A stretch of 64,000 bases of DNA. Origin: an uncultured Pseudomonadota bacterium (GTDB lineage Bacteria > Oederibacteriota > Muellerivitia > Muellerivitales > Muellerivitaceae). Positions 23,056 through 62,793 of this stretch are shown here, piece by piece (the stretch's first letter is position 1; every line of letters starts with the position of its first letter). The DNA lies in contig CAWIIP010000002.1 of NCBI GenBank assembly GCA_963836235.1, positions 139,454 through 203,453 of the forward strand. The letters run 5' to 3'. The position numbers and the translations under genes are program-made. The notes beneath the pieces are model-generated. The model had not been told where the DNA came from. It did no database searches and worked only from the letters and a program-made list of their open reading frames with translations.

Positions 23056-23400
23056 TTAAGTGACGATTTGCCAATTCCCCACTTCCAGCTGGGACGGCAA
23101 GAAGTAGGCCTTCCCATCGGGTTGGGTCGTTTTGGTGTAGGTGACGCTGTTGGAGGGTGGGATCGCCTGGACCGACAAGCCCGTGACCGGAAAGGAATTA
23201 AGGACAGGGGTTGAGCCGGGCGTGGGGTAGGTGAGGTAATTATCGGTGACATAGACCTCAAGCGGCCCTGAGATTGGCAAGGGAGTTGGCGTGGCCTGGT
23301 TCAACGAGGGGGCGTCCGCCGCGGTGGGTACGTTTTTTTTACAGCCGTCGAGCAAAGCGAAGCCACAAGCGAGAGAAACGATTACCGACACGACCAGCAT
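23056..23400 (-). CDS. Hypothetical lipoprotein
   Basis: Start at MLVVSVIVSLACGFALLDGCKK (lipobox LDGC). First gene past the ABC transporter; start of accessory region. Confidence 0.5.
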   Translation of the reverse strand: MLVVSVIVSLACGFALLDGCKKNVPTAADAPSLNQATPTPLPISGPLEVYVTDNYLTYPTPGSTPVLNSFPVTGLSVQAIPPSNSVTYTKTTQPDGKAYFLPSQLEVGNWQIVT

Positions 23401-24373: not shown

Positions 24374-25210
24374 ATGAAAACAAACCTTAAATTAAAACCG
24401 TCCATACAAGCCGTCCTTTATGTACGGGTATCTTCTAAAGAACAAGAAAAAGGGGGGTTTTCAATCCCCGCCCAATTGAGATTGCTTCGGCAGTACGGGG
24501 AAACCCAGGGGTTTACCATTGTTAAAGAATTCCGGGACGTGGAAACCGCCAAGCAATCCGGCCGGGAGGGGTTTGGGGAGATGGTTAATTTCCTTATCAA
24601 GAATACGAACTGCAAATATTTACTGGTCGAAAAGACCGACCGTCTTTACCGAAATTTCAAGGATTACGTTTCATTAGAGGATATGGATGTGGAGATCCAC
24701 CTGGTCAAGGAAGGGTCCATCGTTTCGAATAATTCCAAATCGGCGGAAAAGTTTATCCATGGGATAAAAGTCTTAATGGCAAAAAATTACATCGATAACC
24801 TCTCGGAGGAAACGCGAAAAGGGATGACTGAAAAGGCAGAACAAGGGATTTGGCCCTCGTTAGCCCCGGTTGGTTACAAGAATGTTTTGGGAAAAGCCGG
24901 GAAAAGAACAATAAAACCTGACTCCCGGTCTGCTCCTCTTGTTATCCGCCTTTTCAAAACCTATTCATCGGGAAATTATTCCCTAGAAGGGATGGCACGA
25001 AAGTTTAAAGGAAAAGGTTTTGTTAGTGCTAAAAGGCCCTTGCACAGGAGTACCGTCCATAAAATTCTTTCGAACCAAATGTATTCAGGGCATTTCAATT
25101 GGAAGGGGAAACTTTACCAGGGGAAATATCCGCCCTTAATATCGGAAAAATTATGGGAAAAGGTACAAGGAAAATTGAGGACCAGGTGCACAACCAAATT
25201 GCAGGTTTAG
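24374..25210 (+). CDS. Serine recombinase (resolvase catalytic domain + recombinase domain), apparently truncated
   Basis: VLYVRVSSKEQ (catalytic Ser), ...KTDRLYRN..., then recombinase-domain pattern (NYIDNLSEETRKGMTEKAEQGIWPSLAPVGYKN). Ends at 278 aa where large serine recombinases continue with a zinc ribbon and coiled coil. Confidence 0.8.
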   Translation: MKTNLKLKPSIQAVLYVRVSSKEQEKGGFSIPAQLRLLRQYGETQGFTIVKEFRDVETAKQSGREGFGEMVNFLIKNTNCKYLLVEKTDRLYRNFKDYVSLEDMDVEIHLVKEGSIVSNNSKSAEKFIHGIKVLMAKNYIDNLSEETRKGMTEKAEQGIWPSLAPVGYKNVLGKAGKRTIKPDSRSAPLVIRLFKTYSSGNYSLEGMARKFKGKGFVSAKRPLHRSTVHKILSNQMYSGHFNWKGKLYQGKYPPLISEKLWEKVQGKLRTRCTTKLQV

Positions 25211-31771: not shown

Positions 31772-32230
31772 TTATTCCATTTCACCAAATTTACTTAGAA
31801 ACAGGTTTTGGAGCGCCATTTGTGCTTCCCCTGCATCCTCCCCTTCAAATATTAGAGTGAGTTCTGATCCATAGCTGGCCGCCAAAGTAATGAGATTTAA
31901 AATGGCATCCGGCAGATTGGCGATCTCATAGACCGCTTTTACAGGGTCCGAAACCTGGAAATAAAGCAAAACATCAATAATGATGGTGACGTTATCTTTG
32001 GTTATGACATTTTGTTTTGGAAATTCATAAACCGTCTCTCTTAAATCAATTCTTTCGACTTCCACTTTTCGGACAATATGATTGCCACCGATATCTGTCA
32101 GGGAATACCGCCATTGAATTTTTCGGGGACGGTCAAAGAACGGCCAAAGGATATTCACGCCGCTGTGAAGCAAGCGGTGATAACGTCCCAAACGCTCAAC
32201 GACGACGACTTCCGCCTGTTGCACGATCAT
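31772..32230 (-). CDS. SPFH/band-7 (stomatin-like) domain fragment lacking membrane anchor
   Basis: 152 aa; VVERLGRYHRLLHSGVNILWPFFD ... QNVITKDNVTIIIDVLLYFQVSDPVKAVYEI is the conserved SPFH core; no N-terminal TM and no C-terminal coiled coil, so likely truncated. Confidence 0.5.
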   Translation of the reverse strand: MIVQQAEVVVVERLGRYHRLLHSGVNILWPFFDRPRKIQWRYSLTDIGGNHIVRKVEVERIDLRETVYEFPKQNVITKDNVTIIIDVLLYFQVSDPVKAVYEIANLPDAILNLITLAASYGSELTLIFEGEDAGEAQMALQNLFLSKFGEME

Positions 32231-32237: not shown

Positions 32238-32774
32238 TTAATCGGTAAAGACCCCGTTGCCGTAGGTCACCGAAGACCAGGCTTGGGAACTAGGAAGGGT
32301 TTGGGTCGTCCAATTGATTCCATCCGGCGAGGTTGCCGCCACCGCGCTGTTTTGCGCGACCGCCACAAAGACACCGTTCCCAAAGGTCACCGAAACCCAT
32401 TGTTGAGAACTGGGCAGGTTTTGGGCCGTCCAATTGACCCCGTCGGGCGATGTCGCGGCCACCGCGCTCGCCTTTGAAATCGCCACAAAAATTCCTTTCC
32501 CATAGGTCACCGAGCACCAGCTCTGGAGACCAGGGAGGGTCTGAAAGGTCCAGGACGACCCGGCCAGGGGGGTTGGAGTGGGCGAACAGGTGACGGTTGA
32601 GGTGGGGGTTCCGGTGGCCTGGTTCGTGGTGGTGGAGGTGGGGGTTGAAGTGGCGGTGGCGGAAGCCACCGGGGACGCCGAGGAAGGCGATAGGGGGGTG
32701 CTAAAAGGTTTGGTACAAGCCAGCGGTATGCCCAAAAGAACAGCGGCCAAAAAAACCAGGGTCCATAATTTCAT
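32238..32774 (-). CDS. Secreted protein with Thr-rich linker and three BNR/Asp-box-like repeats
   Basis: Signal peptide; TSTPTSTTTNQATGTPTSTVT linker; three ~40-aa repeats containing SPDG(V/I)NWT (S-x-D-G-x-x-W Asp-box-like). Confidence 0.5.
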   Translation of the reverse strand: MKLWTLVFLAAVLLGIPLACTKPFSTPLSPSSASPVASATATSTPTSTTTNQATGTPTSTVTCSPTPTPLAGSSWTFQTLPGLQSWCSVTYGKGIFVAISKASAVAATSPDGVNWTAQNLPSSQQWVSVTFGNGVFVAVAQNSAVAATSPDGINWTTQTLPSSQAWSSVTYGNGVFTD

Positions 32775-33030
32775 AGATCATCCCCTCCTCAATACTGAAT
32801 TCGAAATATGGATTGAATAAAGCAATTTTGATTCCAGAAAAAGGCGTGGTTTTATTGTGGTTTTGTAAGGGAAAAGCCCGGAAAGAAGGAAGCCCCTTGG
32901 CGGAAGCCCGGCGCAAATTTGACGAATCCCTGCCCCCGGCAGGTTCTTTTTTGACTTGGGACCGGAATTTCCCGGAATTGCGGGGATGGATTATTAAACC
33001 CGCGGGTCGCGGTTCAAAGCGGAGTGGTAA

Positions 33031-36000
33031 TTACCGCAGGACCAGCAATTTGAGGATATTCCGGCCCCGGTTGGTTTGCACCACCACATAGTAAAGGCCG
33101 TTGGCCAAGGGCGTTCCCCACTCATCGGCCAAAGGAATGGGCACGCTGACCCCCGGTTGGACATTGTAATAAGTTAAATCCGCTACCTTCCGGAAGGCGG
33201 TCGTGAAGATCTCGATGCTCACGTTCGATTCAAACGTCAACCCCGGATTGAGCTGAGCCACTCCCCCCGTGGAAACGGGGTTGGGATAAAGCACTGGTTT
33301 GGCCGGAGGGGCCGGGGTCCGGGTAGCCGTGGCCGTCGGCGGTGGCGTTAAAGTTTTAGTGGCCGTTGGGGTGGCCGACGCACTGGGGGTATAAGTCGGC
33401 GTGGCGGCGGCGATGGTGACCGTGGCGCCTGGAACGGGCAATCCGGTAAAGAGAAGGGCCTGGCCGTTGCTTCCCGTGGCGTCCGTGGCGCTGAAGGAAT
33501 AGTTCCCCGCCGGTGAAGAGGAGGAGAAGTTCGCGGTGACTTCGTAGGTCACTGCTCCATTGGCCCCCGGAATGGCGCTGTTGAAGCTGAGGGTGGCGTC
33601 CGGCCCGCTGAAGGCGGCGGTGGCGATAAGCGTTCCATTGGCTGATAAATTGATCGATGTGATCCCGGTGGGAGGGGTTCCCGTCTCGGAGAGGGTGATA
33701 CTGGTGAGCGTCACCGGATTGCCGCTGGGATTGTTCACCTGGATCTGTTGGATGGGTACCCCGGAAGCCCCCGGAATTTGGATGGAGTTACCCGGCGGGC
33801 TCAACCCTTGCGAGGCCGAAACCGTCACCGGCGTGGGGCTGAAAGTGGGAGTCACCGACGCCGTTGAAGTGGCGGTTTGAGTTGGCGAAGCCGAAGGCGT
33901 AGCCGTGGCGGTAGCTGTGTTTGCCGGCGTTAGCGTCCGCGTGAGGGTAGGGGTCGCCGTAGTCGAAGCCGTGGCGGTGGAAGTGGGGGTCAAGGTACTG
34001 GTCCTGGTCGGGGTTCCGGTGTTGACCAGCGTCTCGGTAGCCGTGCCCGTAGGAGTACTTGACGGCGTAGCCGTCAATGTATTGGTCGGCGTAACCGTCG
34101 GCGTAGTGGTGGCCGTTGCCGTCGAGGTGCCGGTGGGGCTGTTGGTGGCCGTCCCGGTCGGGGTCAACGAAGAGGTGGTAGTTGGGCTGTTGCTGGCGGT
34201 ATTCGTGGCCGTAACGGTGGCGGTTGAGGTCGGGGTTCCGGTGTTGACCAGCGTCGCGGTAGCCGTGCCCGTAGGAGTACTTGACGGCGTAGCCGTCAAT
34301 GTATTGGCCGGCGTAACCGTCGGCGTATGGGTGGCCGTTGCCGTCGAGGTGCCGGTGGGGCTGTTGGTGGCTGTCCCGGTCGGGGTCAATGGGGAGGTGG
34401 CAGTTGGGCTGTTGCTGGCGGTATTCGTGGTGGTTGCCGTGGCGGTACGGGTTGCGGTGGATGTCGCGGTTAAAGTCGCCGTATTGGGCAGGGTAGTCGT
34501 GGGCGTAGGGCTAAGGGTTGGGGAGAAGGTGGAAGTAGGGCTGTTGCTGGGTGTGTTCGTGGCCGTTTTGGTGGCCGTGCCCGTAGGAGTACTTGATGGC
34601 GTAGCCGTCAATGTATTCGTCGCGGTGCTGGCAGCCGTATTCGTTGGGCTGTTCATCGGGGTATTCGTGGACGTTGGAGTGGGGGTCGAAGTCGATGTAT
34701 TCGTGGGGCTGTTCGTTGCGGTCTTGGTGGGCGTATTGGTCACGGTGGGTGTGGCGGTATTCGTGGCCGTGGGGGTGGCCGTATGGCTGGGTGTGGCGGT
34801 GGGGGTATTCGTGGGAGTGTTGGTCCGGCTAAAGGTGGGGGTGCTGGAGGCGGTGCTGGTCGCCGTACTGGTGGGAGTGCTGGTTTTCGTGGGGGTAACC
34901 GTGGCCGTGGCGGTTTTTGTGGCGGTCGCCGTCGCGGTCGCGGTCGGCGTGGATGTTTTGGTGAAGGACGCCGTGGCGGTGGGGGTCGCCGTGGCGCCGC
35001 TGGAGGAGCAACCTGGATGGGTAAGTCCCTTCAGCCAGCCATAGACCTGTTGGCCTTCATAAGACGTCAGCACCCAGCCGCTGCCGGTGGAAACCGGGGC
35101 GGACAGAGTTGAGGACCAGGCCGAAAGCAGGAGAGGCGTCGCCGAGATATCCATGTCCCAAGCCATGCCCCCATAGACGTAATTCTTGTCGTTTGTGCCG
35201 TTCATGAAGGTAATCACGCTGTTCACGAAAGTGCCGCCGTCGGTGGTATTGGCCGAATTCCCGAATTCCTCGATGAACACCGGGCCGTAGGTGAGGGCCG
35301 TATCGATGTTGGACTCCCAACCCGCCGGGGTGTTGGTGCCCTTGTTGTTGTAGATATGGGCCGAGTAGACGATGCCGTTGCCTCCGGCCTTATCCACCAC
35401 AGGACTCATGCCCACGTAATAATAGGAATACTGCTGGCCGCCGACGATGCAGATGTTTTCGGCGTTGGTGCCGCTGGCCAGGGTGCTGCCGGCGCTGGCG
35501 GTAGTGCCCCGGATGGTGTTCACGATGGACTGAAGGCCGGGCGTGGTAAAGCCCTCGGAGGCCGTGCCTCCGTTTAACCAGACGGTCCAGGAAGTTGTGT
35601 AGGGCTCGTTGAAGGTGTCGAAGAGCACGGAGGGGTTGTTGGCGTAACGGGCGGCGACGCTGGCCCAGAAAACCAGGCTGTTCTCATCAGGCATGGAGTA
35701 TTGCCCGGTGGCCGAGCCCGTGGGCCCGTCGCCGGACCATTGCAGGTCCAGGTCGCAATAGATGTTGTTGGCGTTGCAGTAGGCCACGAGGGAGTCCACG
35801 AAGCTTTGGTATCCCGATTGGCTGGTGGAACCCCTGGAGCTTTGCGCGTTGCCATCCCACCAGTCCTGGTCCAGGGGGATGCGGACGCAATTGACATTCC
35901 AATATTTGACCGCCTCCTGCAGCATTGTCAGGACCCCATTGCCGCCGGCCGGATTGTCCCCTGGCGGTACGTCCCATTCCAAAGAATCCAGATTCACCCC

Positions 36001-36144
36001 GGTCAGGCGCACGGTGCAGCCGCCGCTGGCGGTGACGATTTCGTTTCCGGAAACCTTAAGCAGGGGAGGAGCGGCTTGCGCGGGAGTTGGACCGAAAAAA
36101 GTGGAACCCAAAAGCACAAAAAGCGAAAGAAAGAAAAAGTTCAT
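33031..36144 (-). CDS. Glycoside hydrolase family 5 (cellulase-like) with ~450-aa Thr/Pro/Ala-rich linker and T9SS C-terminal sorting domain
   Basis: Start at [24 protein letters not shown] (signal peptide); GH5 NEP motif ([11 protein letters not shown]); long TPT/TAT low-complexity linker; C-terminus [10 protein letters not shown]...[13 protein letters not shown]...[22 protein letters not shown] matches T9SS/FlgD-Ig-like CTD. The antisense 379-aa VAVAV ORF is spurious. Confidence 0.8.
33990..34440. repeat. Intragenic tandem repeat, 2 x 222 bp (74 aa) ~95% identical, plus degenerate further copies, in the Thr-rich linker of the GH5 gene
   Basis: Landmark ccgtcaatgt at 34071 and 34293; ggttccggtgttgaccagcgtc at 34012 and 34234 (period 222). 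Confidence 0.8.
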
Positions 36145-36900
36145 TTCGCCCCGGGACGTTTTAAGCCGGGAACCAAAGAACGTTTTCGTTTTGAAAAATA
36201 AGTTTTGTGGAGACCTGTTCAAAGTGTCACCCGATACACTGGTTAAACCGGAATTTCCCAGATGACCTTCTCTGAAAACATTGCCGGGTAATTTGTTTCT
36301 CATTATATCGCCCCCCCCCCCCCCGCTTCTTCCATCCGAATCCGGAATTTTCCGTCCTGGGCCACTGAAATAAGCCCCAGGAAAAGGTTTCTGTGCCCAA
36401 AAAAGCTGAAATTGACCTTCTGGAAAGCCAATTCTCGTTGTGAGCGCACACCTATCCTGCGGTAGTCGCTCGGGTTGAAGCCTTGATGCCTTCCTGCGGT
36501 TATCGCAGTACTGGCGCTCGCGGCCTTACCATTGCCAGTAGCCGTATCCGATTGAGGATTTCAGCAAACAGGCGTCGGGAAACCATCACCTCCGCCATCT
36601 GGAAAATAACGTACCGCGAATGACGGATGACATTAGCCCCGATCTTGATGAGTTTTTCCCTCAAGGTCGTTAGCGACCAATGTTTCACCAGTTCTGGCAG
36701 TGCCAGTCGGCGCAGGAAGTTGCCCAGATTGTAGGCCAGGGCGAATAGTTGTAAGCGCACTTGGTTGTCCGCGAAGTCGTGGCAGCTTAGTCTTGTCCAC
36801 TTCATCGCATACTTTCCCTCTTTGATCCACTGCTCAGCCGTGCCTCTTCCGTTGTAGAATTTCACCACCTGGGGTGCCGGTCGTCGCATGTTCGTTACGA
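35985..36900. repeat. Segmental duplication copy A (916 bp): 5' end/upstream region of GH5 gene plus right end of IS1380-family element; identical to 60757..61724 except a 53-nt indel and poly-C length
   Basis: Direct comparison of the two regions; identity starts at aatccagattcacccc and ends at catgttcgttacga. Poly-C tract is C14 here (36311..36324) versus C13 in copy B. Confidence 0.9.
36248..36900 (-). mobile_element. One-ended remnant of IS1380-family element (right inverted repeat + 3' noncoding region + last 129 codons of transposase)
   Basis: Identical to the 3' part of the complete element at 61073..62778. IRR CCGGAATTTCCCAGATGA begins at 36248. Transposase fragment 36500..36889 is a pseudogene. 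Identity stops abruptly at 36900. Confidence 0.85.
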
Positions 36901-37823
36901 AGAAATCCCATTAGTGTTGATTTACCTGTTCCTCTACCTCCGATAATGGCATTTAACCAAGGGTTAAATTTTGCTGTTAGTGGTACTCCATTACCCATGT
37001 ACTTAGCGCTTTTTACCTCAATTTGATCAATTATTATTGGACTGTGGACATTTGGATCGTCCTGGGTATCTGTAGATCGTTTTATCGAATGAATACCATC
37101 AAACAAACCTAGCCGTAAACCCTCCAGACTTGGGTATGTCATTTTCACCCACGTAAATCTTCGATTTATTTCCGAAGGTTTGTGAGAATCCGATCCAATA
37201 ATTTCCGAGAGAACCCTTTTTGAAGAATGATCAGTAAATATTTGTGGTCTTTGGGAACCAATATCTTTAAATTCGACGGCCGTCAAACCTTTTGAACCTA
37301 GAGCCTGTTCTAATGCTTTCCCTGTAAGTTTAAAAAGACCTGCATGGGAATCATCGACATGCGCGGGAATTGGAATTCCACCTGCGGAAACGACTACTTC
37401 TACAACCTTTTCAAATGTTAGATCAGTAACGGCATCAGATTCACCAGCAGTTCCCTTATATCCAACCGCTCCTCTTAAAGCATCCAAATCGGCCGTTGTT
37501 TTGTTTGGGTCCAAAATAACCAATAAATGAATGCCGGGATTTACACTTATTTCCATTCCCGGGAATAAAACTAATGGTTTATAACCCACGGGCTTTTCTT
37601 GATCTAAAACTGCCAAGGCATTTTTTAAAGGATCAACCCAAGCTCCAGAATTGTGGTCTGTAATAACAACACCATCAAAGCCACCACGCATAAAATCAAG
37701 AATCCAATCTCTTGGGGAACGAGCTTTTAAACTTGGATCACCCTTTCCATAGTCAATGGAGGCGGGAGTATGCGTGTGAAAATCGAATTTCCACCAGCGA
37801 GAACCTGGGAATTCTAAACTCAT
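36834..37823 (-). pseudogene. PHP-domain + SMC-like ABC ATPase protein, third gene of type III R-M operon, truncated by the IS remnant just after the Walker A motif
   Basis: N-terminus WWKFDFHTHTPASIDYGKG and later DHNSG, HVDDSH motifs = PHP phosphoesterase fold. C-terminus WLNAIIGGRGTGKSTLMGF = N-terminal Walker A of SMC/RecF/OLD-type ABC ATPases. Authentic sequence ends at 36901; last ~20 codons are read from IS DNA. Start ATG overlaps res stop (TAATG). Confidence 0.7.
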
Positions 37824-40489
37824 TAAGACTCACCAAAAAGTCTGATTAATTGTTTAAATGATTCCGGTTTGTGTTCATCCCACGCTTCTTGCCGTATATA
37901 TAACGGTTGGTAGGTTTTACCGCGTTCGGCTTTGGTAGCGTCTTCGCACCATTGAATAAGACGGCCCCACTTTTCCGGGTCGTCCAAGTCTTCTCTACCC
38001 TTCGTCTCAATGATCCAAACGTTTTTCTGATCCTGTTTTACGATGAAATCTGGGTAGTAGTTAGAAATGAACCCATCGGCGGTTCGGTATTCGATCTTGA
38101 AAAAGGTACTTTGGGAATTCTTAATGAACGAGATTATGTCGTCACAATCGTCAAGGAAGAAAGCAAACTCAAGCTCAAGGTGGCTATCGCCGATGATCTT
38201 ATTAAAAATTGATTTTTTAGGAATCAAATATTCCTGGTTTTTAACCACAAAGGGGCGAGTCTTGCTCAATTTAATGTAATCCTTAACCTCGGTAGCCCCC
38301 TTGTCTTGGACAGTTAGATCATTAATGGCCTTTTTCAGCGTCTCCCTTAAGGTCTTATTTACTTCCGGTTCAGAAAGGTTCCTAAGAGTATTAAAGTCAT
38401 CCAAGGGGACTTTTTGGCCAAAGAGGTACTTTTCAGTGAACTCCATTAGCTTTCCAAAAAGAATGTCTTTTCCGCCCACCAACCGAAGGTCTCGCATTAT
38501 TGAGGTGGTAAAGTAGGAAATGGCGTTCTGAAAATTCGGCTCGGAATCGGTGTCTAATTCGGTAACGTGGCTGATTTCATCCTTGTCGATATCCTTAAAG
38601 ACGATCTGCCTTTTCTCTTCCTCGGTGTACTGCTTTAGGGAAACAGGTTTAAACTTTAGGTTCCCCACTTTGATGTCGTTTAAGTTCTTATATTCCCTAT
38701 AAATCCTGGGCGCTAATACAGGCAGAACAATATCCAAGCTTTCTATGTCTTTTTTGGGATTTTCCCGATCTACTTCAATCACTAAAGGGGATCTAGGGTT
38801 TTTATCCCCCATAGGGGTGTACTCGAACTCAACACCTTCGATCTTGATGGATTCCACAAATTCAATGAATTTAGAGGTCCCGATAACGCTTACTTTTTCT
38901 GATACGTCTTCACCCCGGAACATCCGCCTAAGGCCACGACCTAGCGTTTGTTCAGGTAATATTTTGGATTCGTATTGCCTTAACCCAACAATGGAAACAA
39001 CGTTTTGCACATCCCACCCCTCTTTTAATACCATTACCGAAACGACTGCTTTATAGGGGCTTTCCATGCTGTCAATTTCTCTGCTGGCTTTACGAAGTAT
39101 GTCCAAATCTTCTTTGTTTTTGTTGGTATTGCTTTCGGAGATTTCGCCGTTGTTTTTAGTATGAATAACCAACACCGCGTCTTTTAATTCTTTAAAAGTA
39201 GCTTCCAAATATTCGGCTACTTCATCGCAATTTTTGGTGTCATCGGTCATTATGAAAAGAACCGATTTCTTGTTAAGTTTGATCAATTCATCGTAAACCT
39301 TTTTCCATTCATAAACCCCAAGATGTAAATAATCCCGAAATTGTTCACAGAATTTAGAACTTTTTCTCTCCTGTAATTTTGCCCTAGAAGCCTCATCAGG
39401 GAGAACGGGTGTTTTGACGACTTGTTGGCGAATGGCTTCCACAAGGGGATAATCGCTGATCGTTTGGACAAAGATCCCACCCCCTTCATGTTTTGGTGTG
39501 GCCGTAACGTCAAACTGGGCAGAAAGTTTCCCACCCTTTATCTTCAATTTATTGGAAATTTCCTCGATAGCCTTAAACCCAGCTTGGGTATTGCTGTGAA
39601 TATGATGGGCCTCGTCGTTGAGGATTACTAAATCGGAAACCTCTCGAACGATCTTCCCTAAATCAGCTTGGGAATCGTTCGTTTTGCCGGTTGGTTTAGT
39701 CCCCAGAAAATAATCCTCTGTGTTTTCATCCTCTAAAGAAGGATTAGTCTCATTGAGGTGGATACGGTGGATATTGGTTAAGAAAATGTTCCCAGTATTG
39801 GAAATGTTCCCAATCTCGTCCTGAATATGTAGAGTCACTTGAAAATCACTTCTCCAATCCTGGCCCTCGTAACCATTCTCCGGTAGAACAGGGTCCTCGT
39901 TGAATATCCTAAGACCATCAAAGTCCACCCGAAGCCGATCCAAAACGATGATGTTCGGAGCCGTAATCAAAAAATTGGTGGAAAGATCAGAATCGGGCTC
40001 ATATCGCTTGTGGAAGTAGGACCAGGCCACCAACAAACTCATTACCTTGGTTTTTCCTGCCCCGGTGGCGAGCTTCATGACGTAACGGGTCCAGGTCTCT
40101 TCAAACATCCCCTTGCTTACTTGTTCGGAAGAGTCGTAACGAAGCAAGGAATAAGGATCGTGCGCCTTTTCTATCTCATAAAGCCAAATAGCCGATTCGA
40201 CTGCTTCTCTTTGGGCGAAGTAATATTGAAATTGACGGGGATCCCCATTGGGACCCGGGACGAAATGTTCTGTGTTGAACCAATAATTCAGGAGGGTCCT
40301 GGTCGTATGGCACGCACCTTCATAACCCCGTTTTCGCCAACTTTTCACACCTTCCCTAATCTTATGAACAAGAGGGGGTAAAAGAAGGGTAAAAGTATCG
40401 CCAAGGACAGTCTGTTCTCCTGGATACCAACGAATTGCAGGATCGAGAATGACATGGGGATCGCGAGGGAAATCAGGTGAAAGGGGCAT
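37823..40489 (-). CDS. res: Type III restriction-modification system restriction subunit (Res), SF2 helicase-nuclease
   Basis: 888 aa; Walker A KLATGAGKTKV, DEAH box (ILNDEAHHIHS), helicase C-terminal motifs, then endonuclease region. Start overlaps mod stop (TAATG). Confidence 0.85.
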   Translation of the reverse strand: MPLSPDFPRDPHVILDPAIRWYPGEQTVLGDTFTLLLPPLVHKIREGVKSWRKRGYEGACHTTRTLLNYWFNTEHFVPGPNGDPRQFQYYFAQREAVESAIWLYEIEKAHDPYSLLRYDSSEQVSKGMFEETWTRYVMKLATGAGKTKVMSLLVAWSYFHKRYEPDSDLSTNFLITAPNIIVLDRLRVDFDGLRIFNEDPVLPENGYEGQDWRSDFQVTLHIQDEIGNISNTGNIFLTNIHRIHLNETNPSLEDENTEDYFLGTKPTGKTNDSQADLGKIVREVSDLVILNDEAHHIHSNTQAGFKAIEEISNKLKIKGGKLSAQFDVTATPKHEGGGIFVQTISDYPLVEAIRQQVVKTPVLPDEASRAKLQERKSSKFCEQFRDYLHLGVYEWKKVYDELIKLNKKSVLFIMTDDTKNCDEVAEYLEATFKELKDAVLVIHTKNNGEISESNTNKNKEDLDILRKASREIDSMESPYKAVVSVMVLKEGWDVQNVVSIVGLRQYESKILPEQTLGRGLRRMFRGEDVSEKVSVIGTSKFIEFVESIKIEGVEFEYTPMGDKNPRSPLVIEVDRENPKKDIESLDIVLPVLAPRIYREYKNLNDIKVGNLKFKPVSLKQYTEEEKRQIVFKDIDKDEISHVTELDTDSEPNFQNAISYFTTSIMRDLRLVGGKDILFGKLMEFTEKYLFGQKVPLDDFNTLRNLSEPEVNKTLRETLKKAINDLTVQDKGATEVKDYIKLSKTRPFVVKNQEYLIPKKSIFNKIIGDSHLELEFAFFLDDCDDIISFIKNSQSTFFKIEYRTADGFISNYYPDFIVKQDQKNVWIIETKGREDLDDPEKWGRLIQWCEDATKAERGKTYQPLYIRQEAWDEHKPESFKQLIRLFGES

Positions 40490-42672
40490 TAAACTTTCAC
40501 CTCAACTACTTTGGTTGTGTCGTTTCCAAAAATGTCGATCACTTTGACTGCAATTTTATATTTACCCTTAGAAGGATACTCGTACTCGGCGCTTTCCATC
40601 TCGAGGGAGCGATCTTTATCAGTGCGGAAAGTCTGCCATTGGTTCTCAAAAATAAACCCTCCGGTCCAAACATCTCTTTCTTTTCCCTTTTCGTCCACCT
40701 GCTTTATTATCTCCTTACGGCTCTCATAGTCGAAGTCCACGGCCCAATAGTCGATCCAGTCTGTCCATTTCTTTGTGAGCACTTCCCTTTTTACAATGCC
40801 CTTTTTGTCCTTGGTGATCTTCACGACCTGGCCGTTCTCAACGGTTACTTTAGAACCGCCTGGTTTAAGGGATTCGGAAACAGCTTCCACGTCATCCTGG
40901 GTGTAGAAAACACCAAAATTTTTGAGGACAACGGTGGCTTTCATCCCTTTTATTTTGGGCAACACCTCACCATAAGCCGCGTCAAAGAATTTAACCTGAT
41001 TCTTTTCAACAGCACGGCGGTCAAAAACATCTTTAGGAATGTACTTCAGGGACAAGTTAATTCCGTGACGGTTAGCTTCATCTTTATAGGTTTCGATTAG
41101 GCCCATTTCAAATTCAAACCCAAGAACATCAACCTTTGTAAGCTTTAACTTTTTACAGGACTCAATTATTTCCTGAACCTGGCTAATGGTAACAGGTGCA
41201 TCCAAGGGGCCAACGAAAACAGCTACACCGCCTCTTTTACCATGAAATGGAGCTAGCTGTTGAACACGCTCTCCTTTGTAAGCTTGCAAGATAAGCTTTA
41301 GATAATCCTCCTCCTTCTGAAGGGATTGTTTCTTTCGTTCCTTCTCTGGTAGGTTTGGGTTAATTCCTACAAAGTATTGACGTTCATATTTGCCTAAGTT
41401 GAGAATTTCAAAACTACGATAGGGTTTTGTATCCTTTTTTAGTTCTCGTTGTGCCCCTATAAGGCGTTTACGAGTCGTATGAATTGAGAAACGACCTAGG
41501 TCACACCCGATCCATTTGCGGCCAAGTTTTTCAGCAACTGAAAGAGTCGTCCCGGAACCACAAAAAAAATCAGCAACCAGATCAGTGTCATTTGAGGAGG
41601 CTTTAATAATTCGTTCTAGTAATGTTTCAGGTTTTTGGGTCGCATAATTAGTTCTTTCCTCGGCCATTGAGTTAACTTCTGAAATATCAGTCCAAATATC
41701 ACCCAATGATTCCCCTTTTTCTTCATCTAAATATCTTATTAATCTTTTATTCCCACTTGAGGTTACCCAAATTTTGTTTTGTTTTTCAAACTGTTTAATT
41801 GAATCTTCCGAATAATCTCCCAAATCACAATCACGAAATAATCTTCCTTTTTTATCAGGTCGAAATTTTGTTTTAATAAAATTTTCGTCGTAGGGTTTAT
41901 AAGCACCGTTCCAAGTCCATTTCTCGGACTTGGAATAAAATAGTATAGAGTCAGAATTCCTAGCATATTGGCCAGATGTCGCTTTAGCTCCCCGGACTGG
42001 CTGCCTTCGCCATCTAATTTCATTTCGAAAATTTTCTAACCCAAATAATTCCTGCATTACCAGACGAATTACACTATTCAACCTCCAATCACAATGAACG
42101 TAAATAGAGCCATCGTTTGCCAATAAATCCTTCATTAATTTTACCCGCTCGTACATCATTGATAAATATGAGTCGGCTCCTCTACCCCATGTGTCTCTAT
42201 AGGCCACGTCTTCTATTACACTTGGCTCTTTTTCTAACAGTCCTTTGTCGCCAATCTCTAAGTTAATAGAAAAATCTGATCCAATATCAAAAGGAGGGTC
42301 GATGTAAATGAGTTTCAAACCACCCACTTCATCGATCTCTTGGCGCAAAGGCCCATTTTTTAGAGATGAAAGGACTAGTTTATTGTCACCCCAAATAAGT
42401 TTATTACTCCAACCACTAGCCTGACGGCCGCTTTGGAGATCTAAAGAAAAGAGATCCGCCACCTGGCCAGTTTTTTCTGACCTTGGTTCGTCGATTTGTT
42501 CGATGACTTGGAACGGAAGAACTGCATTCGTGACTTCTTGGGACTTCCCTTGCCACACAAGCTCAACTTCAGGAGCATCGGCAAAGAGAGAAAGGCGGTA
42601 TTTGGGTGGAAGAGGTTCTCCCCGGTCGACCATGGCTTTGATTTGTTCTTTTTCTTGATCGGAAAGGTACAC
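40489..42672 (-). CDS. mod: Type III restriction-modification system methyltransferase (Mod), N6-adenine beta-class, with ~150-aa C-terminal extension
   Basis: 727 aa; motif IV IYIDPPFDIGSDF precedes motif I DFFCGSGTTLSVAEKLGRKWIGCDL (beta-class order typical of Mod). Confidence 0.85.
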   Translation of the reverse strand: MYLSDQEKEQIKAMVDRGEPLPPKYRLSLFADAPEVELVWQGKSQEVTNAVLPFQVIEQIDEPRSEKTGQVADLFSLDLQSGRQASGWSNKLIWGDNKLVLSSLKNGPLRQEIDEVGGLKLIYIDPPFDIGSDFSINLEIGDKGLLEKEPSVIEDVAYRDTWGRGADSYLSMMYERVKLMKDLLANDGSIYVHCDWRLNSVIRLVMQELFGLENFRNEIRWRRQPVRGAKATSGQYARNSDSILFYSKSEKWTWNGAYKPYDENFIKTKFRPDKKGRLFRDCDLGDYSEDSIKQFEKQNKIWVTSSGNKRLIRYLDEEKGESLGDIWTDISEVNSMAEERTNYATQKPETLLERIIKASSNDTDLVADFFCGSGTTLSVAEKLGRKWIGCDLGRFSIHTTRKRLIGAQRELKKDTKPYRSFEILNLGKYERQYFVGINPNLPEKERKKQSLQKEEDYLKLILQAYKGERVQQLAPFHGKRGGVAVFVGPLDAPVTISQVQEIIESCKKLKLTKVDVLGFEFEMGLIETYKDEANRHGINLSLKYIPKDVFDRRAVEKNQVKFFDAAYGEVLPKIKGMKATVVLKNFGVFYTQDDVEAVSESLKPGGSKVTVENGQVVKITKDKKGIVKREVLTKKWTDWIDYWAVDFDYESRKEIIKQVDEKGKERDVWTGGFIFENQWQTFRTDKDRSLEMESAEYEYPSKGKYKIAVKVIDIFGNDTTKVVEVKV

Positions 42673-48933: not shown

Positions 48934-49620
48934 TTTGAACGCTCCGCTTTTTTATTAGAGGAGAGAGCACCCTCCGGGTGCGCCCCCTCAAAAATCCTTG
49001 GGGGCGCATACGGAGCGAGTAAGGTGTTTGTGTTGGGGCAAATCAATGTCGGCGGGTCCTGCGCCTTGGTGTTAGCAGACCGGGAAAATTCCCAAACAGG
49101 TTTTGGGCCGAAAGACGAGGAACGAGGCGTGGCCCGTTTGGGAATTTAGGCGCTGACCGATCCCGGCGGCGATAGCCGCCCGTCGATTTGGTTTGCGTCC
49201 TCTATGTCTTTCGTTTCTGGGGTTGCCAGGGGTCACTGTCCCTTGGCTAGGGTGGGGATATAGGGGAGGGTCTTTTCCCTCCCCCTGGGGGGTCCGGGGG
49301 ATGGCTCGAACGAGCCCGCCGCCCGGGCTAGGGTGGGCACCTGGCCCGTCGCTTTCAAAGCGAGGGCCTCGCAGTGGTGGTGCAAACAGCATTGAAGCTG
49401 TTTGCAAAAGGGTAGGGGTACTTCCCTTCCCTGCTTTAATGATTTTCGAGGCGCGGCAAAGGGAAGGTTACACGGCCAAAGGCCGGCGAACCTTCCTCAA
49501 TCCCGATAGGGGCCGCACCGAGACAAAGAACACCTTAATCGGCTTTTCCCCATACACCTTCCCGACCCTTCTCAAGATAGACGCGTTTCACGTAAAGTGT
49601 AATATGTAGGCCTGGCCCCT
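48934..49620. promoter_or_regulatory. GC-rich structured noncoding element A2 (closest relative of A3)
   Basis: First ~60 nt (ttattagaggagagagcaccctccgggtgcgccccctcaaaaatccttgggggcgcatacggagcga) nearly identical to the start of A3; shared ~100-nt block ggtcact...ctagggtgggg...ggggggtccggggga...cgccgcccgggcta; perfect hairpin GCAAACAGCATTGAAGCTGTTTGC; GAAGGTTACACGGCC...GGCGAACCTTC hairpin. Confidence 0.65.
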
Positions 49621-49812
49621 TTTTCTATGGGGAAACGCCGCCCGGTCTACCGTGTGGAAATTGGAGTCGCGGGGAAAAGTTAATCCATAAAAACCGACGA
49701 ACGAATTTGGATTTTAGTGAGGAGGTTTTTAACTTTGAGGGCCGGCGATTAAAAAATTACACAGGCAAAAGGAGGAAATCTGTCCAGAGGGTCCAAAGCC
49801 CCTTTAATGGAA

Positions 49813-50409
49813 TTACTGTGAGGGTGGGAGAGGGAGAGTTGTGATATTTAATTTTTTATTGACGTATTGAATCCATTTCTCAGCGGAATTTCTTTGGTCA
49901 TCTGTCTGGGCCGTTTGAACAGCCGCATTAAAATATTTTAACGAATCTTGCCACCTATCCTCTTTAGTTAATTTTACTCCATACGAGAAGTAAGAATTAA
50001 AGTTTTCACCACCTTCCAAATTTGAAGAATTGGAAGCTTGGAGGTCGGCATTCATATTTTTCTGGTTAAGTTTATTCCAATCAGAGGTAATGGCGTCTAC
50101 GATTAAAGGAATAAAACCTAATAGGAAACCTGGAACAACATCCAAAACTATCCATCCACCATCAACACCATTACTCAACGAGCTTGTTTGGGTGGTATAT
50201 CCAGGTTTCCTAAATTCAACATTATGAGTTTTGTTAGATTCTAGAGGAACAGAAACTGGGGTAGTTCCCCTTTGCAAACCATCAACATAAACTTCTGCAC
50301 CAGGGGGATTGGAGGAAAATTCAACAGGTTCTGCACCACCTTTAAAGACCGTTGCGCAACCGGTAGAAATAAGGCTGAACACTAACATTAAAGCCATTAA
50401 CTTTTTCAT
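49813..50409 (-). CDS. PEGA-domain lipoprotein
   Basis: Start MKKLMALMLVFSLISTGC (lipobox); PPGAEVYVDGLQRGTTP = PEGA motif. Confidence 0.6.
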   Translation of the reverse strand: MKKLMALMLVFSLISTGCATVFKGGAEPVEFSSNPPGAEVYVDGLQRGTTPVSVPLESNKTHNVEFRKPGYTTQTSSLSNGVDGGWIVLDVVPGFLLGFIPLIVDAITSDWNKLNQKNMNADLQASNSSNLEGGENFNSYFSYGVKLTKEDRWQDSLKYFNAAVQTAQTDDQRNSAEKWIQYVNKKLNITTLPLPPSQ

Positions 50410-50555
50410 AACACTCCGAATGATCAAGCGTCCACTTATTTCATCGAGATATAAGGTTAATTGTCGTGACTACCCTTGGTCAACACAAAAATAGGCTAGG
50501 AGGGGAGGCACTTCCGTTGCACACCATCCTTTTTGCGACAGCCATGTGCAGGTAT

Positions 50556-50873
50556 TTAGGCACTCTTTTTCCCGCGGGCGAGTTCCCTTTCAAATAGAAT
50601 CCGCACCCCGAAAGCGTGAAGAACCTTTTCTAAACTCGAAAGGGTTGGATTTCCCTTCTCGGAAAGCATCGTGTAAAGGGATTCCCTCGCAAGTTGTGTT
50701 TCCTTGGAAAGCTTTTTCATCCCGCCTAGGGCGTCGGCCACGTTCTTCAATGCCTTCAAAAAGTATTTAAAATCTCCGGTTTCCCAAGCGGCGTTTATGT
50801 ATCGGACCCGTGTTTTAAGGTCTTGAAGTTCTTCAAACAAATAACTTTTATGGTCAATCAATCCAAATTTCAT
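50556..50873 (-). CDS. Addiction-module antidote protein, HTH type (HI1420-like)
   Basis: LKALKNVADALGGMKKLSKETQLARESLYTMLSEKGNPTLSSLEKVLHAFGV matches the conserved HI1420-type antidote pattern; 4-nt overlap with upstream toxin gene. Confidence 0.7.
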   Translation of the reverse strand: MKFGLIDHKSYLFEELQDLKTRVRYINAAWETGDFKYFLKALKNVADALGGMKKLSKETQLARESLYTMLSEKGNPTLSSLEKVLHAFGVRILFERELARGKKSA

Positions 50874-51244
50874 TTCACGCTCCCTTTAAAAGCCGCCCAT
50901 AGCTTGGTGGCTTTCTTTGTGTCATTATCCTGATTGTCTTTTTCTCCCCCACAAACCACGACGATGATGGCTCCCTTATGATAGCCGTAATAAACCCGGA
51001 AACCTCTTCCGTAATGAATCCTTAATTCCCAAAGGCCCCCGGTCTTTGGCAGGTCGTGATGATCGCCAAAATTCCCGTCCTCCATCCGGTCAACCGCCAT
51101 CCGTATAAGGTCCTTGGCGGTTTCGTCCTTTAAGCGGCGGTGCCACTCCTTGTATAAAACCTTACCGTCTACCTCCAAATATTTAACTACAAAGGGGTGG
51201 TTTTCCATGCCTGAACCTAGTGTAATATTTATATTACTCATTGT
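50870..51244 (-). CDS. Addiction-module killer protein, RelE/ParE superfamily (HI1419-like)
   Basis: GDHHDLPKTGGLWELRIHYGRGFRVYYGYHKGAIIVVVCGGEKDNQDNDTKKATKLW matches the HI1419-type toxin pattern. Start chosen at MSNINITLG; upstream part of the 172-aa ORF looks non-coding. Confidence 0.65.
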   Translation of the reverse strand, partial: TMSNINITLGSGMENHPFVVKYLEVDGKVLYKEWHRRLKDETAKDLIRMAVDRMEDGNFGDHHDLPKTGGLWELRIHYGRGFRVYYGYHKGAIIVVVCGGEKDNQDNDTKKATKLWAAFKGSVK

Positions 51245-51301
51245 CAAATCTTCCTTTCGAAAACAATCCCGAAAGGGGCCGCACCGAGACAAAGAACACC
51301 C

Positions 51302-51343
51302 CAAAAAAAGCCCCCCGGTTTGAAACCGGGGGGCTTTTCTTCC
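51302..51343. terminator. Bidirectional rho-independent terminator downstream of ardC
   Basis: Hairpin GCCCCCCGGTTTGAAACCGGGGGGC flanked by caaaaaaa (5') and ttttcttcc (3'). Confidence 0.65.
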
Positions 51344-51362
51344 TGAAAGGATGGAGCTGTTA

Positions 51363-52235
51363 TTAAGCGGCTTCCTCCTTCTTTTCAAATTTCACGCCTA
51401 AGATAAAGTCGGCTGCGGATTGGGCGAGTGATGCCGCCCGGAAAATGGCGCGGGTGTCATCCTTTAAAACCTTGATCCAGTTTTGGACATAGGCGGCGTG
51501 TTGGGTGTCGTATTCGTAGCCGACATGCCCAGCCAAGAAAGCCCCGCCTATTTCGGCGACAAGTTCCTCGAAGGCATAATCAACTGAACCGAAAACCAGG
51601 GACTGCTTGCGGTTAAGCCGTTTCGGGTGGCCGCTCCAGTGGGTTAGCTCATGGTAACTCGTGGAAAAAAATTTCTCCTCCGTCTTGAAAGAACGGCGAG
51701 GGGGAAGGTTGATATAGTCCAAAGTCGGGGAGTAAAAAGCCTTGTCGGGGTTTTCTTCAACGATCTTCGCCCCGGATTGGGTGAGGATGCGCTCGGCTTC
51801 CTCGTTCTTGTTGAAAGGCTTTTCCTCGGCGCTCTTGGGCCGCAAGTGGTCGAGTCCCTCGGTTTGGTCCAGGTTGAAAACCGTAAAATATTTTAGGTAT
51901 TTGATAACCTTCTTTTCAAAATCCCCTTCCGCTTTTTCCTCCTTCACCGTCAAGGGCTTGAAGAAAATGACCTCAACCCCCTTGGCCCCGGCCTTGATGT
52001 TGCCTCCCGCTGTTTTGGCCTGTTGGTAGGTGAGCCAAGAGTTACAGGAAAAACCCTGGCGGCTCGCAACCGAGGTAAGCCAAATAACATTCACCCCCCG
52101 GTATGCCTTCCGGGTGGCGGCGTTCTTGGGGAAGTTTCCGGTTTTAATCCAGGGCGTTTCCCAAAAAAGATTTCCTTTCTCCATGTCCTCCAAAATTTGG
52201 TTGGTGATTTTCTCCATCAAATCGTTTGTTTTCAT
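51363..52235 (-). CDS. ardC: ArdC-like antirestriction protein (N-terminal ssDNA-binding domain + C-terminal HExxH zincin domain)
   Basis: N-terminus KAYRGVNVIWLTSVASRQGFSCNSWLTYQQAKTAGGNIKAGAKG matches ArdC-N; C-terminal YHELTHWSGH metalloprotease motif. Confidence 0.75.
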   Translation of the reverse strand: MKTNDLMEKITNQILEDMEKGNLFWETPWIKTGNFPKNAATRKAYRGVNVIWLTSVASRQGFSCNSWLTYQQAKTAGGNIKAGAKGVEVIFFKPLTVKEEKAEGDFEKKVIKYLKYFTVFNLDQTEGLDHLRPKSAEEKPFNKNEEAERILTQSGAKIVEENPDKAFYSPTLDYINLPPRRSFKTEEKFFSTSYHELTHWSGHPKRLNRKQSLVFGSVDYAFEELVAEIGGAFLAGHVGYEYDTQHAAYVQNWIKVLKDDTRAIFRAASLAQSAADFILGVKFEKKEEAA

Positions 52236-52760: not shown

Positions 52761-53127
52761 CTTTTCACCTTATGGGCCAAAAAAGCGACCGGCCTTGGGT
52801 CTCACGCCCCTTCCCTCGTCCCCAAATACCGTGGACGGTGAACCAGGCCTCGAACGCTGCCGTTGCACTCTCGCGATTCGTCGCTTAAAGGATTGCCTGA
52901 CCAGAGCTCCAGGTCATCCGCTCCGCTACTTCCCTTCCGCCAAAAGCACGCGGAAGTCCCTTAATCATCGTTGCCGGAAAAACCGGCAACCTCGACTTCC
53001 GCACCAGGCAGGCCTGCTTGAGGGCAGGCCGCCAAGAATCCTTTTTACCCGCGCCCCCCTACTCGTTCGTAGAGGGGGGCGCAGTAAAAAGGCGCGAAAC
53101 CCTCAAATAAAAATGAGGAGGATTCGC

Positions 53128-53547: not shown

Positions 53548-53561
53548 AAGATAAAAGAAGG

Positions 53562-54041: not shown

Positions 54042-54080
54042 ATTATCCTCCGTTGGAAAGCTCCTAAGGCGCAAACACCT

Positions 54081-60725: not shown

Positions 60726-60756
60726 TATTGCTTCCTTAGTTCAAGCAGAATTAATT

Positions 60757-61724
60757 AATCCAGATTCACCCCGGTCAGGCGCACGGTGCAGCCGCCGCTG
60801 GCGGTGACGATTTCGTTTCCGGAAACCTTAAGCAGGGGAGGAGCGGCTTGCGCGGGAGTTGGACCGAAAAAAGTGGAACCCAAAAGCACAAAAAGCGAAA
60901 GAAAGAAAAAGTTCATTTCGCCCCGGGACGTTTTAAGCCGGGAACCAAAGAACGTTTTCGTTTTGAAAAATAAGTTTTGTGGAGACCTGTTCAAAGTGTC
61001 ACCCGATACACTGGTTAAAGGTTGCGGAACAATTGGCAACAAAACTCGAAATGTTTCATCGCTTCTCATGAACCGGAATTTCCCAGATGACCTTCTCTGA
61101 AAACATTGCCGGGTAATTTGTTTCTCATTATATCGCCCCCCCCCCCCCGCTTCTTCCATCCGAATCCGGAATTTTCCGTCCTGGGCCACTGAAATAAGCC
61201 CCAGGAAAAGGTTTCTGTGCCCAAAAAAGCTGAAATTGACCTTCTGGAAAGCCAATTCTCGTTGTGAGCGCACACCTATCCTGCGGTAGTCGCTCGGGTT
61301 GAAGCCTTGATGCCTTCCTGCGGTTATCGCAGTACTGGCGCTCGCGGCCTTACCATTGCCAGTAGCCGTATCCGATTGAGGATTTCAGCAAACAGGCGTC
61401 GGGAAACCATCACCTCCGCCATCTGGAAAATAACGTACCGCGAATGACGGATGACATTAGCCCCGATCTTGATGAGTTTTTCCCTCAAGGTCGTTAGCGA
61501 CCAATGTTTCACCAGTTCTGGCAGTGCCAGTCGGCGCAGGAAGTTGCCCAGATTGTAGGCCAGGGCGAATAGTTGTAAGCGCACTTGGTTGTCCGCGAAG
61601 TCGTGGCAGCTTAGTCTTGTCCACTTCATCGCATACTTTCCCTCTTTGATCCACTGCTCAGCCGTGCCTCTTCCGTTGTAGAATTTCACCACCTGGGGTG
61701 CCGGTCGTCGCATGTTCGTTACGA
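60757..61724. repeat. Segmental duplication copy B (968 bp), containing a 5' pseudogene fragment of the GH5 gene (60757..60969, minus strand)
   Basis: Identical to 35985..36900 apart from a 53-nt insertion (61020..61072) and C13 vs C14 tract. Includes the cellulase ATG (60969..60967) and first 71 codons fused to unrelated sequence. Confidence 0.9.
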
Positions 61725-62778
61725 TGAAACCCACCTTTGGGAACAATTCCCCGTTGTGATGTTCGATCTTCGCCACCACGCGGCGGGGTTTGTCCCAGCT
61801 GACGGCTTGGTATTGGAAGCTGTGAAACCGGACAACCGGCTTGTGGGAGGGGCGGCCCACGGGACGGGTTAAAAATGGCTCGATTTCCCGTTGGAGTATG
61901 GCATTGGCAGGTTGGCGGATCGCGTAAAGATATCCTTCGTCTTCTAGGTATTCGTATAGTTCCTGACGGGCGAAAGCCGCGTCACCCCGGAAAAACCGGC
62001 TGATGGAAAGACCCCGGTAGCGGGCAACTACCGGTTCAAGAACCGAACGCCATTCGTGGGCACTGGCCACATTGCCGTTGCGCAACATAGCCCGTTCCAA
62101 ATCGCCGAACTGGTTGAAGCAAAACAGGGGATGGTAACAGGTACAGCCAAAGTAACCGTTGTACAAGGAACCTTCCTGATCCCCGTAGGTCTCGCTCACT
62201 GAGCTATCCATGTCGAGGATGATCTGTTGTATGGGCTTTTTCTCATGGACTCCATCGATCCATTGGCCCGATAAGTCAATTAAGCCGGTCAAATTCTTCG
62301 ACTGGGTGAGGACCTCCGTCTCGAAACGACCCATCTGGCTGGTGGAGGCGGCCTGTTTTTCCCTGGCCCGTCCTCCGATCACATGCCGCATCGCAGGATC
62401 GACACTCAGGCGTTCTGCGTCGTTGGTATCCTCATAACCGGCCAAGCGGCTGAATACCGACTGGCGAAGAAGCGCCGTCATCGTGTGTTGCGTATTCTTA
62501 CCGGTCCGCCGATCCCAAAGGATGTTTTCTGTTCTGTCAGTCAAACCAAAAGCTTCGTCGAGTTCGCGATAGGGAATCAACCCGCCATCGGAAGTGACCT
62601 TCGCACCATGGAACTCCAACTTGAGGCCAGGATCAAAAACCACCCGAAGAGCGTCTTTTCCGCCTTCACCCATTGCATTTCCCCCTCTCATGTTCCCCAA
62701 CACGAAGAAAAACCTTTGTTTATATGGCCAAACGTTGTCTTATTATACTCGAAAGGAAATTCCATCTGGGAAATCCGG
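61073..62778 (-). mobile_element. Complete IS1380-family insertion sequence (~1.7 kb)
   Basis: Imperfect terminal inverted repeats CCGGAATTTCCCAGATGA (61073..) and CCATCTGGGAAATCCGG (..62778); single 459-aa transposase. No matching 4-bp target duplication found. ~250-bp 3' noncoding region contains the C13 tract. Confidence 0.8.
61324..62703 (-). CDS. IS1380-family DDE transposase
   Basis: N-terminus LKLEFHGAKVTSDGGLIPYRELDEAFGLTD...LLRQSVFSRLAGYEDTNDAERLSVDPAM matches the IS1380-family N-terminus; C-terminal LSCHDFADNQVRLQLFALAYNL. Confidence 0.85.
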   Translation of the reverse strand: MLGNMRGGNAMGEGGKDALRVVFDPGLKLEFHGAKVTSDGGLIPYRELDEAFGLTDRTENILWDRRTGKNTQHTMTALLRQSVFSRLAGYEDTNDAERLSVDPAMRHVIGGRAREKQAASTSQMGRFETEVLTQSKNLTGLIDLSGQWIDGVHEKKPIQQIILDMDSSVSETYGDQEGSLYNGYFGCTCYHPLFCFNQFGDLERAMLRNGNVASAHEWRSVLEPVVARYRGLSISRFFRGDAAFARQELYEYLEDEGYLYAIRQPANAILQREIEPFLTRPVGRPSHKPVVRFHSFQYQAVSWDKPRRVVAKIEHHNGELFPKVGFIVTNMRRPAPQVVKFYNGRGTAEQWIKEGKYAMKWTRLSCHDFADNQVRLQLFALAYNLGNFLRRLALPELVKHWSLTTLREKLIKIGANVIRHSRYVIFQMAEVMVSRRLFAEILNRIRLLAMVRPRAPVLR

Positions 62779-62793
62779 GTTAAGGGTTACATT

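Follow-up and report, generated by a model that had tools for sequence, protein, structure and literature searches.

To our knowledge, the capture of neighbouring DNA by insertion sequences (ISs) of the IS1380 family has been described almost exclusively for resistance genes of clinical strains, as in the case of ISEcp1 with blaCTX-M. ISEcp1/ISEc9 moves its flanks by using surrogate ends that share 3-12 bases with the right inverted repeat (IRR) and makes 5-bp repeats, in a family whose target-site duplications measure 4-5 bp; an ISEcp1 transposition unit of 36 kb has been shown experimentally (PMC12116815). On plasmid pSHV3 of Sphingobium herbicidovorans MH, an IS1380 element is reported to have copied itself together with the adjacent genes yfcG and gstB and part of rutE (PMC5737581). 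Here we analyse an IS1380-family element in a 64,000-nt stretch of DNA from an uncultured bacterium (contig CAWIIP010000002.1 of assembly GCA_963836235.1, positions 139,454 to 203,453; hereafter the window), in which a part of the element is found twice beside the same start of a cellulase gene. This repeat was probably made by the IS itself, which would at times skip its IRR, use a weakly similar sequence downstream as its end, and move with the neighbouring DNA as one unit. Such flank capture is a known habit of the IS1380 family; the new part is the host, an uncultured soil phylum.

By its transposase, the element belongs to the same family as ISEcp1, which is found in the blaCTX-M and blaCMY units of Enterobacterales. 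In both systems a single IS lies upstream of the carried gene with its IRR facing that gene, and the cargo extends from the IRR to a weakly IRR-like end, with a variable length and possibly with units nested in each other. Both make AT-rich 5-bp target duplications, which are found here around whole units in sister copies and at 4 of 5 positions around copy B. Additionally, the surrogate ends of ISEcp1 are often not IRR-like, as is the case for one unit in a related genome (L013, see below). In contrast to ISEcp1, the host here is the uncultured candidate division FCPU426, the cargo consists of a cellulase gene and gene fragments instead of resistance genes, and the two elements differ in the sequence of their inverted repeats. 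Additionally, the IS end here contains no detectable promoter, and the movement is deduced from sequence. The Sphingobium element resembles the present one in its environmental host, its non-resistance cargo, its several copies of the IS with the same flank and the partial gene at the far end; it differs in phylum and in the element itself, and the passage that describes it does not analyse target duplications or surrogate ends. One-ended rolling-circle elements of the IS91/ISCR type likewise move an IS with a variable length of one-sided DNA when the terminator end is missed. However, these elements have an HUH (Y1/Y2) transposase, no inverted repeats and no 5-bp duplication. The transposase in the window is of the DDE class, its IS has inverted repeats, and 5-bp duplications occur, which together rule out an IS91-type rolling-circle mechanism.

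Ends and copies of the IS1380-family element

The inverted repeats of the complete IS (copy B, Table 1) are CCCGGATTTCCCAGATG and CCGGAATTTCCCAGATG, and the ends of the element are defined by at least eight copies with unrelated flanks. Six other IS copies, which are 99.7-100% identical, terminate at the same bases as copy B, and sister copies with 89-100% DNA identity terminate at bases matching the window copy. A preliminary description of this DNA had placed a complete IS at 61073-62778; the completeness stands, and only the right edge shifts to 62779. The transposase scores 378.5 bits against the NCBIfam model NF033539 (IS1380 family transposase; cut-off 180) and matches Pfam DDE_Tnp_1_4 (PF13701) with E = 3e-132. 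Members of the IS1380 family are about 1.5-2 kb long and carry one transposase open reading frame (ORF) between terminal inverted repeats that begin with CC. The IS in the window fits these features, with 1707 bp, one 459-aa ORF and terminal inverted repeats, and on every feature testable in its sequence it is a member of the IS1380 family.

A transposase scan of reference genomes found the element in metagenome-assembled genomes of the FCPU426 candidate division (MFD series). The 5-bp duplications were measured on sister copies; both IS copies in the window carry flanks. Five of the FCPU426 sister copies are bordered by perfect AT-rich 5-bp target duplications (TTAAA, CTAAT, TTTAA, ATTAC and CTTAA), which agree with the 4-5 bp of the family. 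A second copy of the sister IS (L018, 184-3265) is interrupted by a 1.37-kb insertion (1418-2787), and its outer ends keep a perfect CTTAA duplication. A further copy, 99.7% identical (L001, 5925-7628), has an additional T within the IRR, and the pentamers flanking it do not match each other; it could represent a recombinant or one more read-through unit.

The IS and its cellulase flank at two sites

The duplication was mapped with BLASTN and a repeat finder within the window. Positions 35985-36247 equal 60757-61019 (263 nt, 100% identical), and 36248-36900 equal 61073-61724 exactly except for one extra C in a homopolymer, with imperfect similarity extending to 36910/61733. Between the flank and the IS, 53 nt (61020-61072) are found only in copy B. 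Together, the 916-nt identity of copies A and B cannot be due to chance. These data reproduce three claims of the preliminary description, namely an identity of about 0.92 kb, a copy A that keeps only the right part of the IS (IS positions 1047-1707), and a 53-nt segment of B that is missing from A. Its reading of the poly-C tract also agrees with ours, C14 in A (36309-36322) and C13 in B (61134-61146); the tract measures 8-9 in the six other IS copies. This expanded homopolymer, located about 60 nt from the IRR, is common to A and B and absent in the six others, which indicates that A and B are recent sister copies. The one-base difference between A and B is unreliable evidence, because the assemblies are apparently long-read ones, as judged by the contig names of related genomes. 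For the same reason, a reading of the difference as a phase-variation signal was rejected, one base in a 13-14-nt homopolymer being untrustworthy in such assemblies.

The preliminary description had proposed a search of related genomes for a cellulase gene lacking the upstream IS, and such a locus was found. Specifically, a 330-kb contig from another metagenome (ERZ25039491 contig_66206; L008) encodes the identical 1037-aa cellulase, a GH5 enzyme by Pfam, with no IS nearby; its gene is flanked there by a 223-aa gene upstream and the intact 356-aa gene downstream. L008 7898-11902 corresponds to window 36247-32243 (4005 bp, 100% identical) with flanks that differ on both sides, and L008 7845-7897 is the 53-nt piece retained only by copy B. 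IS-free L008 is collinear, at 100% identity, with both the 53 + 263 nt of B and the 4005 nt of A. This contiguity demonstrates that the 53 nt are native upstream DNA of the cellulase gene, adjoining the right end of the IS. The pentamer TTCAT, which lies beside the IRR at the start of the 53 nt, is the probable target of the first IS insertion. The cellulase gene starts at ATG 36144, as called in L008, so the duplicated coding part comprises about 53 codons instead of the 71 counted earlier. The 4005-bp block finishes in CGGGGTCTTTACCG, which resembles the IRR and precedes an ATTAA. Since the identity with L008 stops on both sides of the block and the next gene is cut, copy A is neither the native locus nor the ancestral site, the block being out of context at both ends. 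Most probably, copy A represents an earlier unit of the IS-plus-flank kind.

Next to the native comparison, the break points themselves carry information. Every position of the native region was compared with the terminal 14-22 nt of the IS and given a score, and break-point sequences were read in transposase orientation (window minus strand). The B break point matches the IS ends at 9/14 and 11/18 positions (top 0.4-0.8% of positions), so the IRR-like sequence that the preliminary description had proposed to look for near 35985/60757 is present. The A break point matches at 8/14, 10/18 and 12/22 (top 0.7-2.4%; the 10/18 and 12/22 values alone, top 0.7-1.4%). ATTAA, a pentamer of the type duplicated by the IS, follows directly after both the A and the B break point. 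A strict rule that a surrogate end finishes in G was tried and rejected, as the ends here finish in G, A or C. Where the IS and its flank end in copy B, TTAA is found on either side (60755-60758 and 62780-62783), and the earlier statement that neither copy shows a clean 4-bp duplication does not hold for this copy.

The same architecture is found in related genomes. In MFD03726.bin.1.149, two identical sister-IS copies (L012 and L013) have the same 449 nt of flank on the IRR side, beyond which their sequences differ. In L013, GTAAA lies directly outside the left inverted repeat (IRL) and again directly after the 449 nt, a perfect 5-bp duplication, and L013 is a clean IS-plus-flank unit. In L015, CTTAT lies outside the IRL and is repeated 4892 nt beyond the IRR, after a 12/18 IRR-like sequence whose background frequency is about 0.0007; the segment 4418-11013 is a probable 4.9-kb IS-plus-flank unit.

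Table 1 Features of the IS1380-family element, its flanks and its surroundings (window coordinates).
Feature	Position	Strand	Remarks
Complete IS (copy B), 1707 bp	61073..62779	-	IRL at 62779, IRR at 61073; inverted repeats read directly
Transposase gene, 459 aa, sole ORF of the IS	61324..62703	-	NCBIfam NF033539 and Pfam DDE_Tnp_1_4
IS remnant of copy A, right 653-663 bp (IS positions 1047-1707)	36248..36900	-	IRR intact; Pfam matches last third of transposase
53-nt native cellulase upstream piece, kept in B, lost in A	61020..61072	-	L008 7845-7897; IS-free sequence reads GCGGT-TTCAT-GAG
Cellulase 5' untranslated region and ~53 codons moved to site B	60759..61019	-	100% identical to 35987-36247 and L008; ends IRR-like CGGGGTGAATCTGG(A)
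Target-site copy, far end of small B unit	60754..60758		ATTAA in transposase orientation; last four TTAA
Pentamer outside IRL	62780..62784		TTAAG on + strand, CTTAA in transposase orientation; 8 nt upstream of nth start
Transplanted block, 4005 bp: GH5 cellulase gene (33031-36144) and first half of next gene	32243..36247	-	Identical to L008
Truncated gene, 178-aa remnant of a 356-aa gene	32238..32774	-	Intact gene at L008 11371-12441; stop codon from target sequence
N-terminal third of TrlF/Ppl-type defence ATPase gene	36834..37823	-	Reading frame continues into IS remnant
Second TTAAG copy, left island edge	23056..23060		Candidate target duplication of large nested unit; L092 crosses junction
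Lipoprotein gene cut at island edge, 114 aa	23059..23400	-	Homologues with same N-terminus reach 320-365 aa

Course of events and alternative explanations

From these data we infer an order of events, a donor copy and an action of the transposase itself as follows. The IS would have entered at TTCAT upstream of the GH5 cellulase gene, with its IRR toward the gene, and units reaching from the IRL to the inside of downstream genes would then have been moved. One unit, now copy A, would have carried about 4.0 kb of cargo, in which the cellulase gene is followed by one half of its downstream neighbour and which ends in ...GGGGTCTTTACCG. The other, now copy B, would have carried 314 nt, comprised of the 53-nt upstream piece and about 53 codons and ending in ...GGGGTGAATCTGG(A). 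Both units are proposed to have inserted at ATTAA-type sites. Copy A would later have lost the 53 nt beside its IRR, exactly flush with the IS end. After this loss the IRR adjoins TTTAA, a typical target pentamer; the loss may have occurred via an adjacent deletion made by the transposase into the nearby TTTAA, or through an independent second insertion at TTTAA. A separate microhomology deletion would then have removed the left 1046 bp of the IS of copy A and joined the remainder to about codon 305 of the TrlF/Ppl ATPase gene. As demonstrated by the sequence at this joint, the IS remnant and the ATPase gene are fused at 36900-36910 through the imperfect microhomology GAAA(T)CCCA, and because the joint lies within the IS, it is attributed to an ordinary deletion and not to the transposase. 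Residues 7-309 of the truncated ATPase match positions 2-330 of 944 in the NCBIfam model TrlF_fam_ATP, and the protein also matches positions 1-298 of 882 in the Ppl_antiphage model. Two proposals of the preliminary description gain support here: an ISEcp1-style movement of the IS with DNA beyond its IRR, by the IS-free locus L008, the IRR-like break points and the L013 unit; and at least two events, flank-carrying transposition followed by deletion, by what copy A has lost, namely the 53 nt beside its IRR and 1046 bp from the left part of its IS.

Several observations weigh against this explanation. The 5-bp duplication of copy B matches at only 4/5 positions (CTTAA vs ATTAA) and is perfect only as 4 bp or under the nested-unit model given below; in copy A the IRL side, where one of the two pentamers would lie, is deleted. 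The surrogate end of L013 is not IRR-like, so that IRR-likeness is no strict requirement and its weight here is statistical only. Database look-ups and scans gave the IS-free native locus, but neither a donor locus, with the IS upstream of the cellulase gene in native context, nor an empty target site. A scan for sigma-70-type promoters in the IS end showed none, which says little for this phylum. The same type of scan found no sites in the native upstream region of the cellulase gene, likewise weak information for this phylum.

The searches behind the missing donor and empty site were as follows. If the small B unit was inserted in place, its predicted empty site would read ...TTCAAGCAGAATTAATTAAGGGTTACATTGCC...; a scan of JGI metagenome contigs with this site returned nothing, and neither did one with the native cellulase upstream sequence. 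A homologue search for the donor locus with the truncated 178-aa ORF yielded nothing closer than 58% identity. Exact-protein look-ups with nth read from a TTG start, the truncated ATPase, a 1090-aa extended cellulase ORF and the ABC-transporter ATPase gave no match, and therefore no strain-level relative with an empty site was obtained. That neither a donor nor an empty site turned up in the databases is no argument against the model.

Three other explanations were weighed against transposition of the IS with its flank. A join at the repeated IS that was collapsed or made chimeric in metagenome assembly would be suspected because the window probably comes from a metagenome-assembled genome, as the related FCPU426 genomes do, and because homopolymer lengths differ between A and B. 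However, independent Logan contigs of run ERR11718638, which match the window at 100%, span four outer junctions. The junction at 60757 lies within L007, that between the ATPase gene and the IS at 36900 within L088, that at 32243 within L089 and that at 23061 within L092; L088 ends 30 nt inside the repeat, as is expected of a k-mer assembler. These junctions are not the artefact of one assembler, whether or not ERR11718638 underlies the window assembly. Furthermore, an assembler would not make a 53-nt deletion flush with the IS end, nor place break points on IRR-like sequences. The artefact, which the preliminary description had named as a possible refutation, is largely refuted, and we give it next to no probability.

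A biological rival is ordinary segmental duplication by recombination unrelated to the transposase, with unrelated deletions trimming both copies and the IS as a passenger. At least one deletion in A was indeed made without the transposase, at the microhomology junction within the IS (36900-36910); the region is a patchwork of truncated genes, and the duplication around B is imperfect. Yet the carried DNA starts exactly at the IRR in both copies, and both blocks end in IRR-like sequence followed by an AT-rich pentamer of the target type, a combination with a joint chance of the order of 1e-3 to 1e-4; the same architecture also recurs with a perfect duplication in the sister element. We therefore consider segmental duplication unlikely. 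Still less likely is that the IS hit two cellulase paralogues separately, copy B being the eroded remnant of the second paralogue. The distance from the IS to the cellulase start would fit, being 53 nt greater in B than in A, and the junction pentamers TTCAT and TTTAA resemble normal targets. This explanation is contradicted by the 100% identity of the common 263 nt, by the rare expanded homopolymer in both IS copies that makes them recent sisters, by the end of the B fragment, which is IRR-like and lies beside a target-type pentamer instead of at a random point, and by the fact that neither site has the native cellulase context of L008.

The surrounding island and its neighbouring genes

The ABC-transporter ATPase gene and nth are direct neighbours in two relatives, L090 and L091, whose nth proteins are 95% and 94% identical to that of the window, with about 82% DNA identity, and the nth protein P0001 is 100% identical to it. 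In the window the two genes are about 39.8 kb apart (22985-62790), separated by an island of defence and mobile-element genes, many of which are truncated. The island includes a truncated serine recombinase, a beta-lactamase-fold protein, NYN and HTH genes, a Band_7/HPr fusion ORF and unit A, together with the TrlF remnant, a restriction enzyme, a methylase, an S1/P1 nuclease, an ArdC-like gene and toxin-antitoxin pairs. The IS of copy B stands at the right edge of the island with its IRL outward, 8 nt and a pentamer away from the nth start. At the left edge, the pentamer at 23056-23060 (CTTAA in transposase orientation) lies within about 35-75 nt of the end of native-like intergenic DNA, and the sequence just inside 23061 matches the IS end at 8/14 positions (top 2%). 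A first homologue search with the lipoprotein cut at this edge returned only the protein itself, and a full HMMER search gave few and weak, though useful, homologues.

These features raise the possibility that 23061-62779 (39,719 bp) is itself one nested IS1380 unit, reaching from the IRL of copy B to a surrogate end in the lipoprotein gene, a reading to which we assign an even chance. The cargo of such a unit may include the restriction-modification system, the TrlF/Ppl remnant, the toxin-antitoxin pairs, the ArdC-like gene, the truncated serine recombinase and the older cellulase unit A. A nested unit would explain the mismatch between CTTAA and ATTAA around the small B unit, and its size is not unprecedented, given the ISEcp1 unit of 36 kb that has been shown experimentally. 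About equally probable is that the island is a decayed integrative element or grew by stepwise accretion, and that the 5-bp match arose by chance; this combined chance is estimated at about 1e-3. The nested unit predicts an empty site reading ...TTTTAGTTGTAAGTCTTTAAGGGTTACATTGCC..., with the ABC-transporter gene adjoining nth. The closest nth relatives, at about 82% DNA identity, are without the entire island, and no base-precise empty site was obtainable from them.

Additional features were observed within the island. The serine recombinase (24374-25210, + strand) is only 278 aa long and has Resolvase and Recombinase domains without the usual C-terminal part; it is probably the remnant of the large serine recombinase of an integrative element. 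A 152-aa ORF with the look of a fusion or truncation (31772-32230, - strand; Pfam Band_7 and a weak PTS-HPr match) begins 13 nt from the end of unit A. The cellulase gene contains dense 12-nt-periodic and 222-nt repeats (32567-35100), which code for long linker repeats rich in Thr, Pro, Ala and Ser and lift the local G+C content to 57-62%. Directly upstream of the truncated ATPase gene, 37823-42672 (- strand, G+C 40-42%) encodes a restriction endonuclease (888 aa), which is related to the BPTD_3080 family at a score under the cut-off of that model, and an N6/N4 methylase (727 aa). Several diverged direct repeats at 48970-56363, with 72-88% identity and a spacing of 2.7-3.4 kb, suggest two to three tandem paralogous modules.

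Flank capture appears as a recurrent behaviour in genomes of this uncultured soil phylum, given at least two units in the window and, in a related genome, a clean unit and a second, probable one. The cargo includes the gene of a carbohydrate-degrading enzyme and perhaps a 40-kb island. If the nested unit is true, an entire island of defence and accessory genes would have been moved by a single IS in an uncultured phylum. For genome annotation, the data carry a warning that the short piece of the cellulase gene at site B, the truncated gene of the defence ATPase and several other broken genes are by-products of IS activity and not functional genes. Together, our findings suggest that flank capture is a property of the IS1380 family in general and that genes of environmental bacteria are routinely shuffled in this way.

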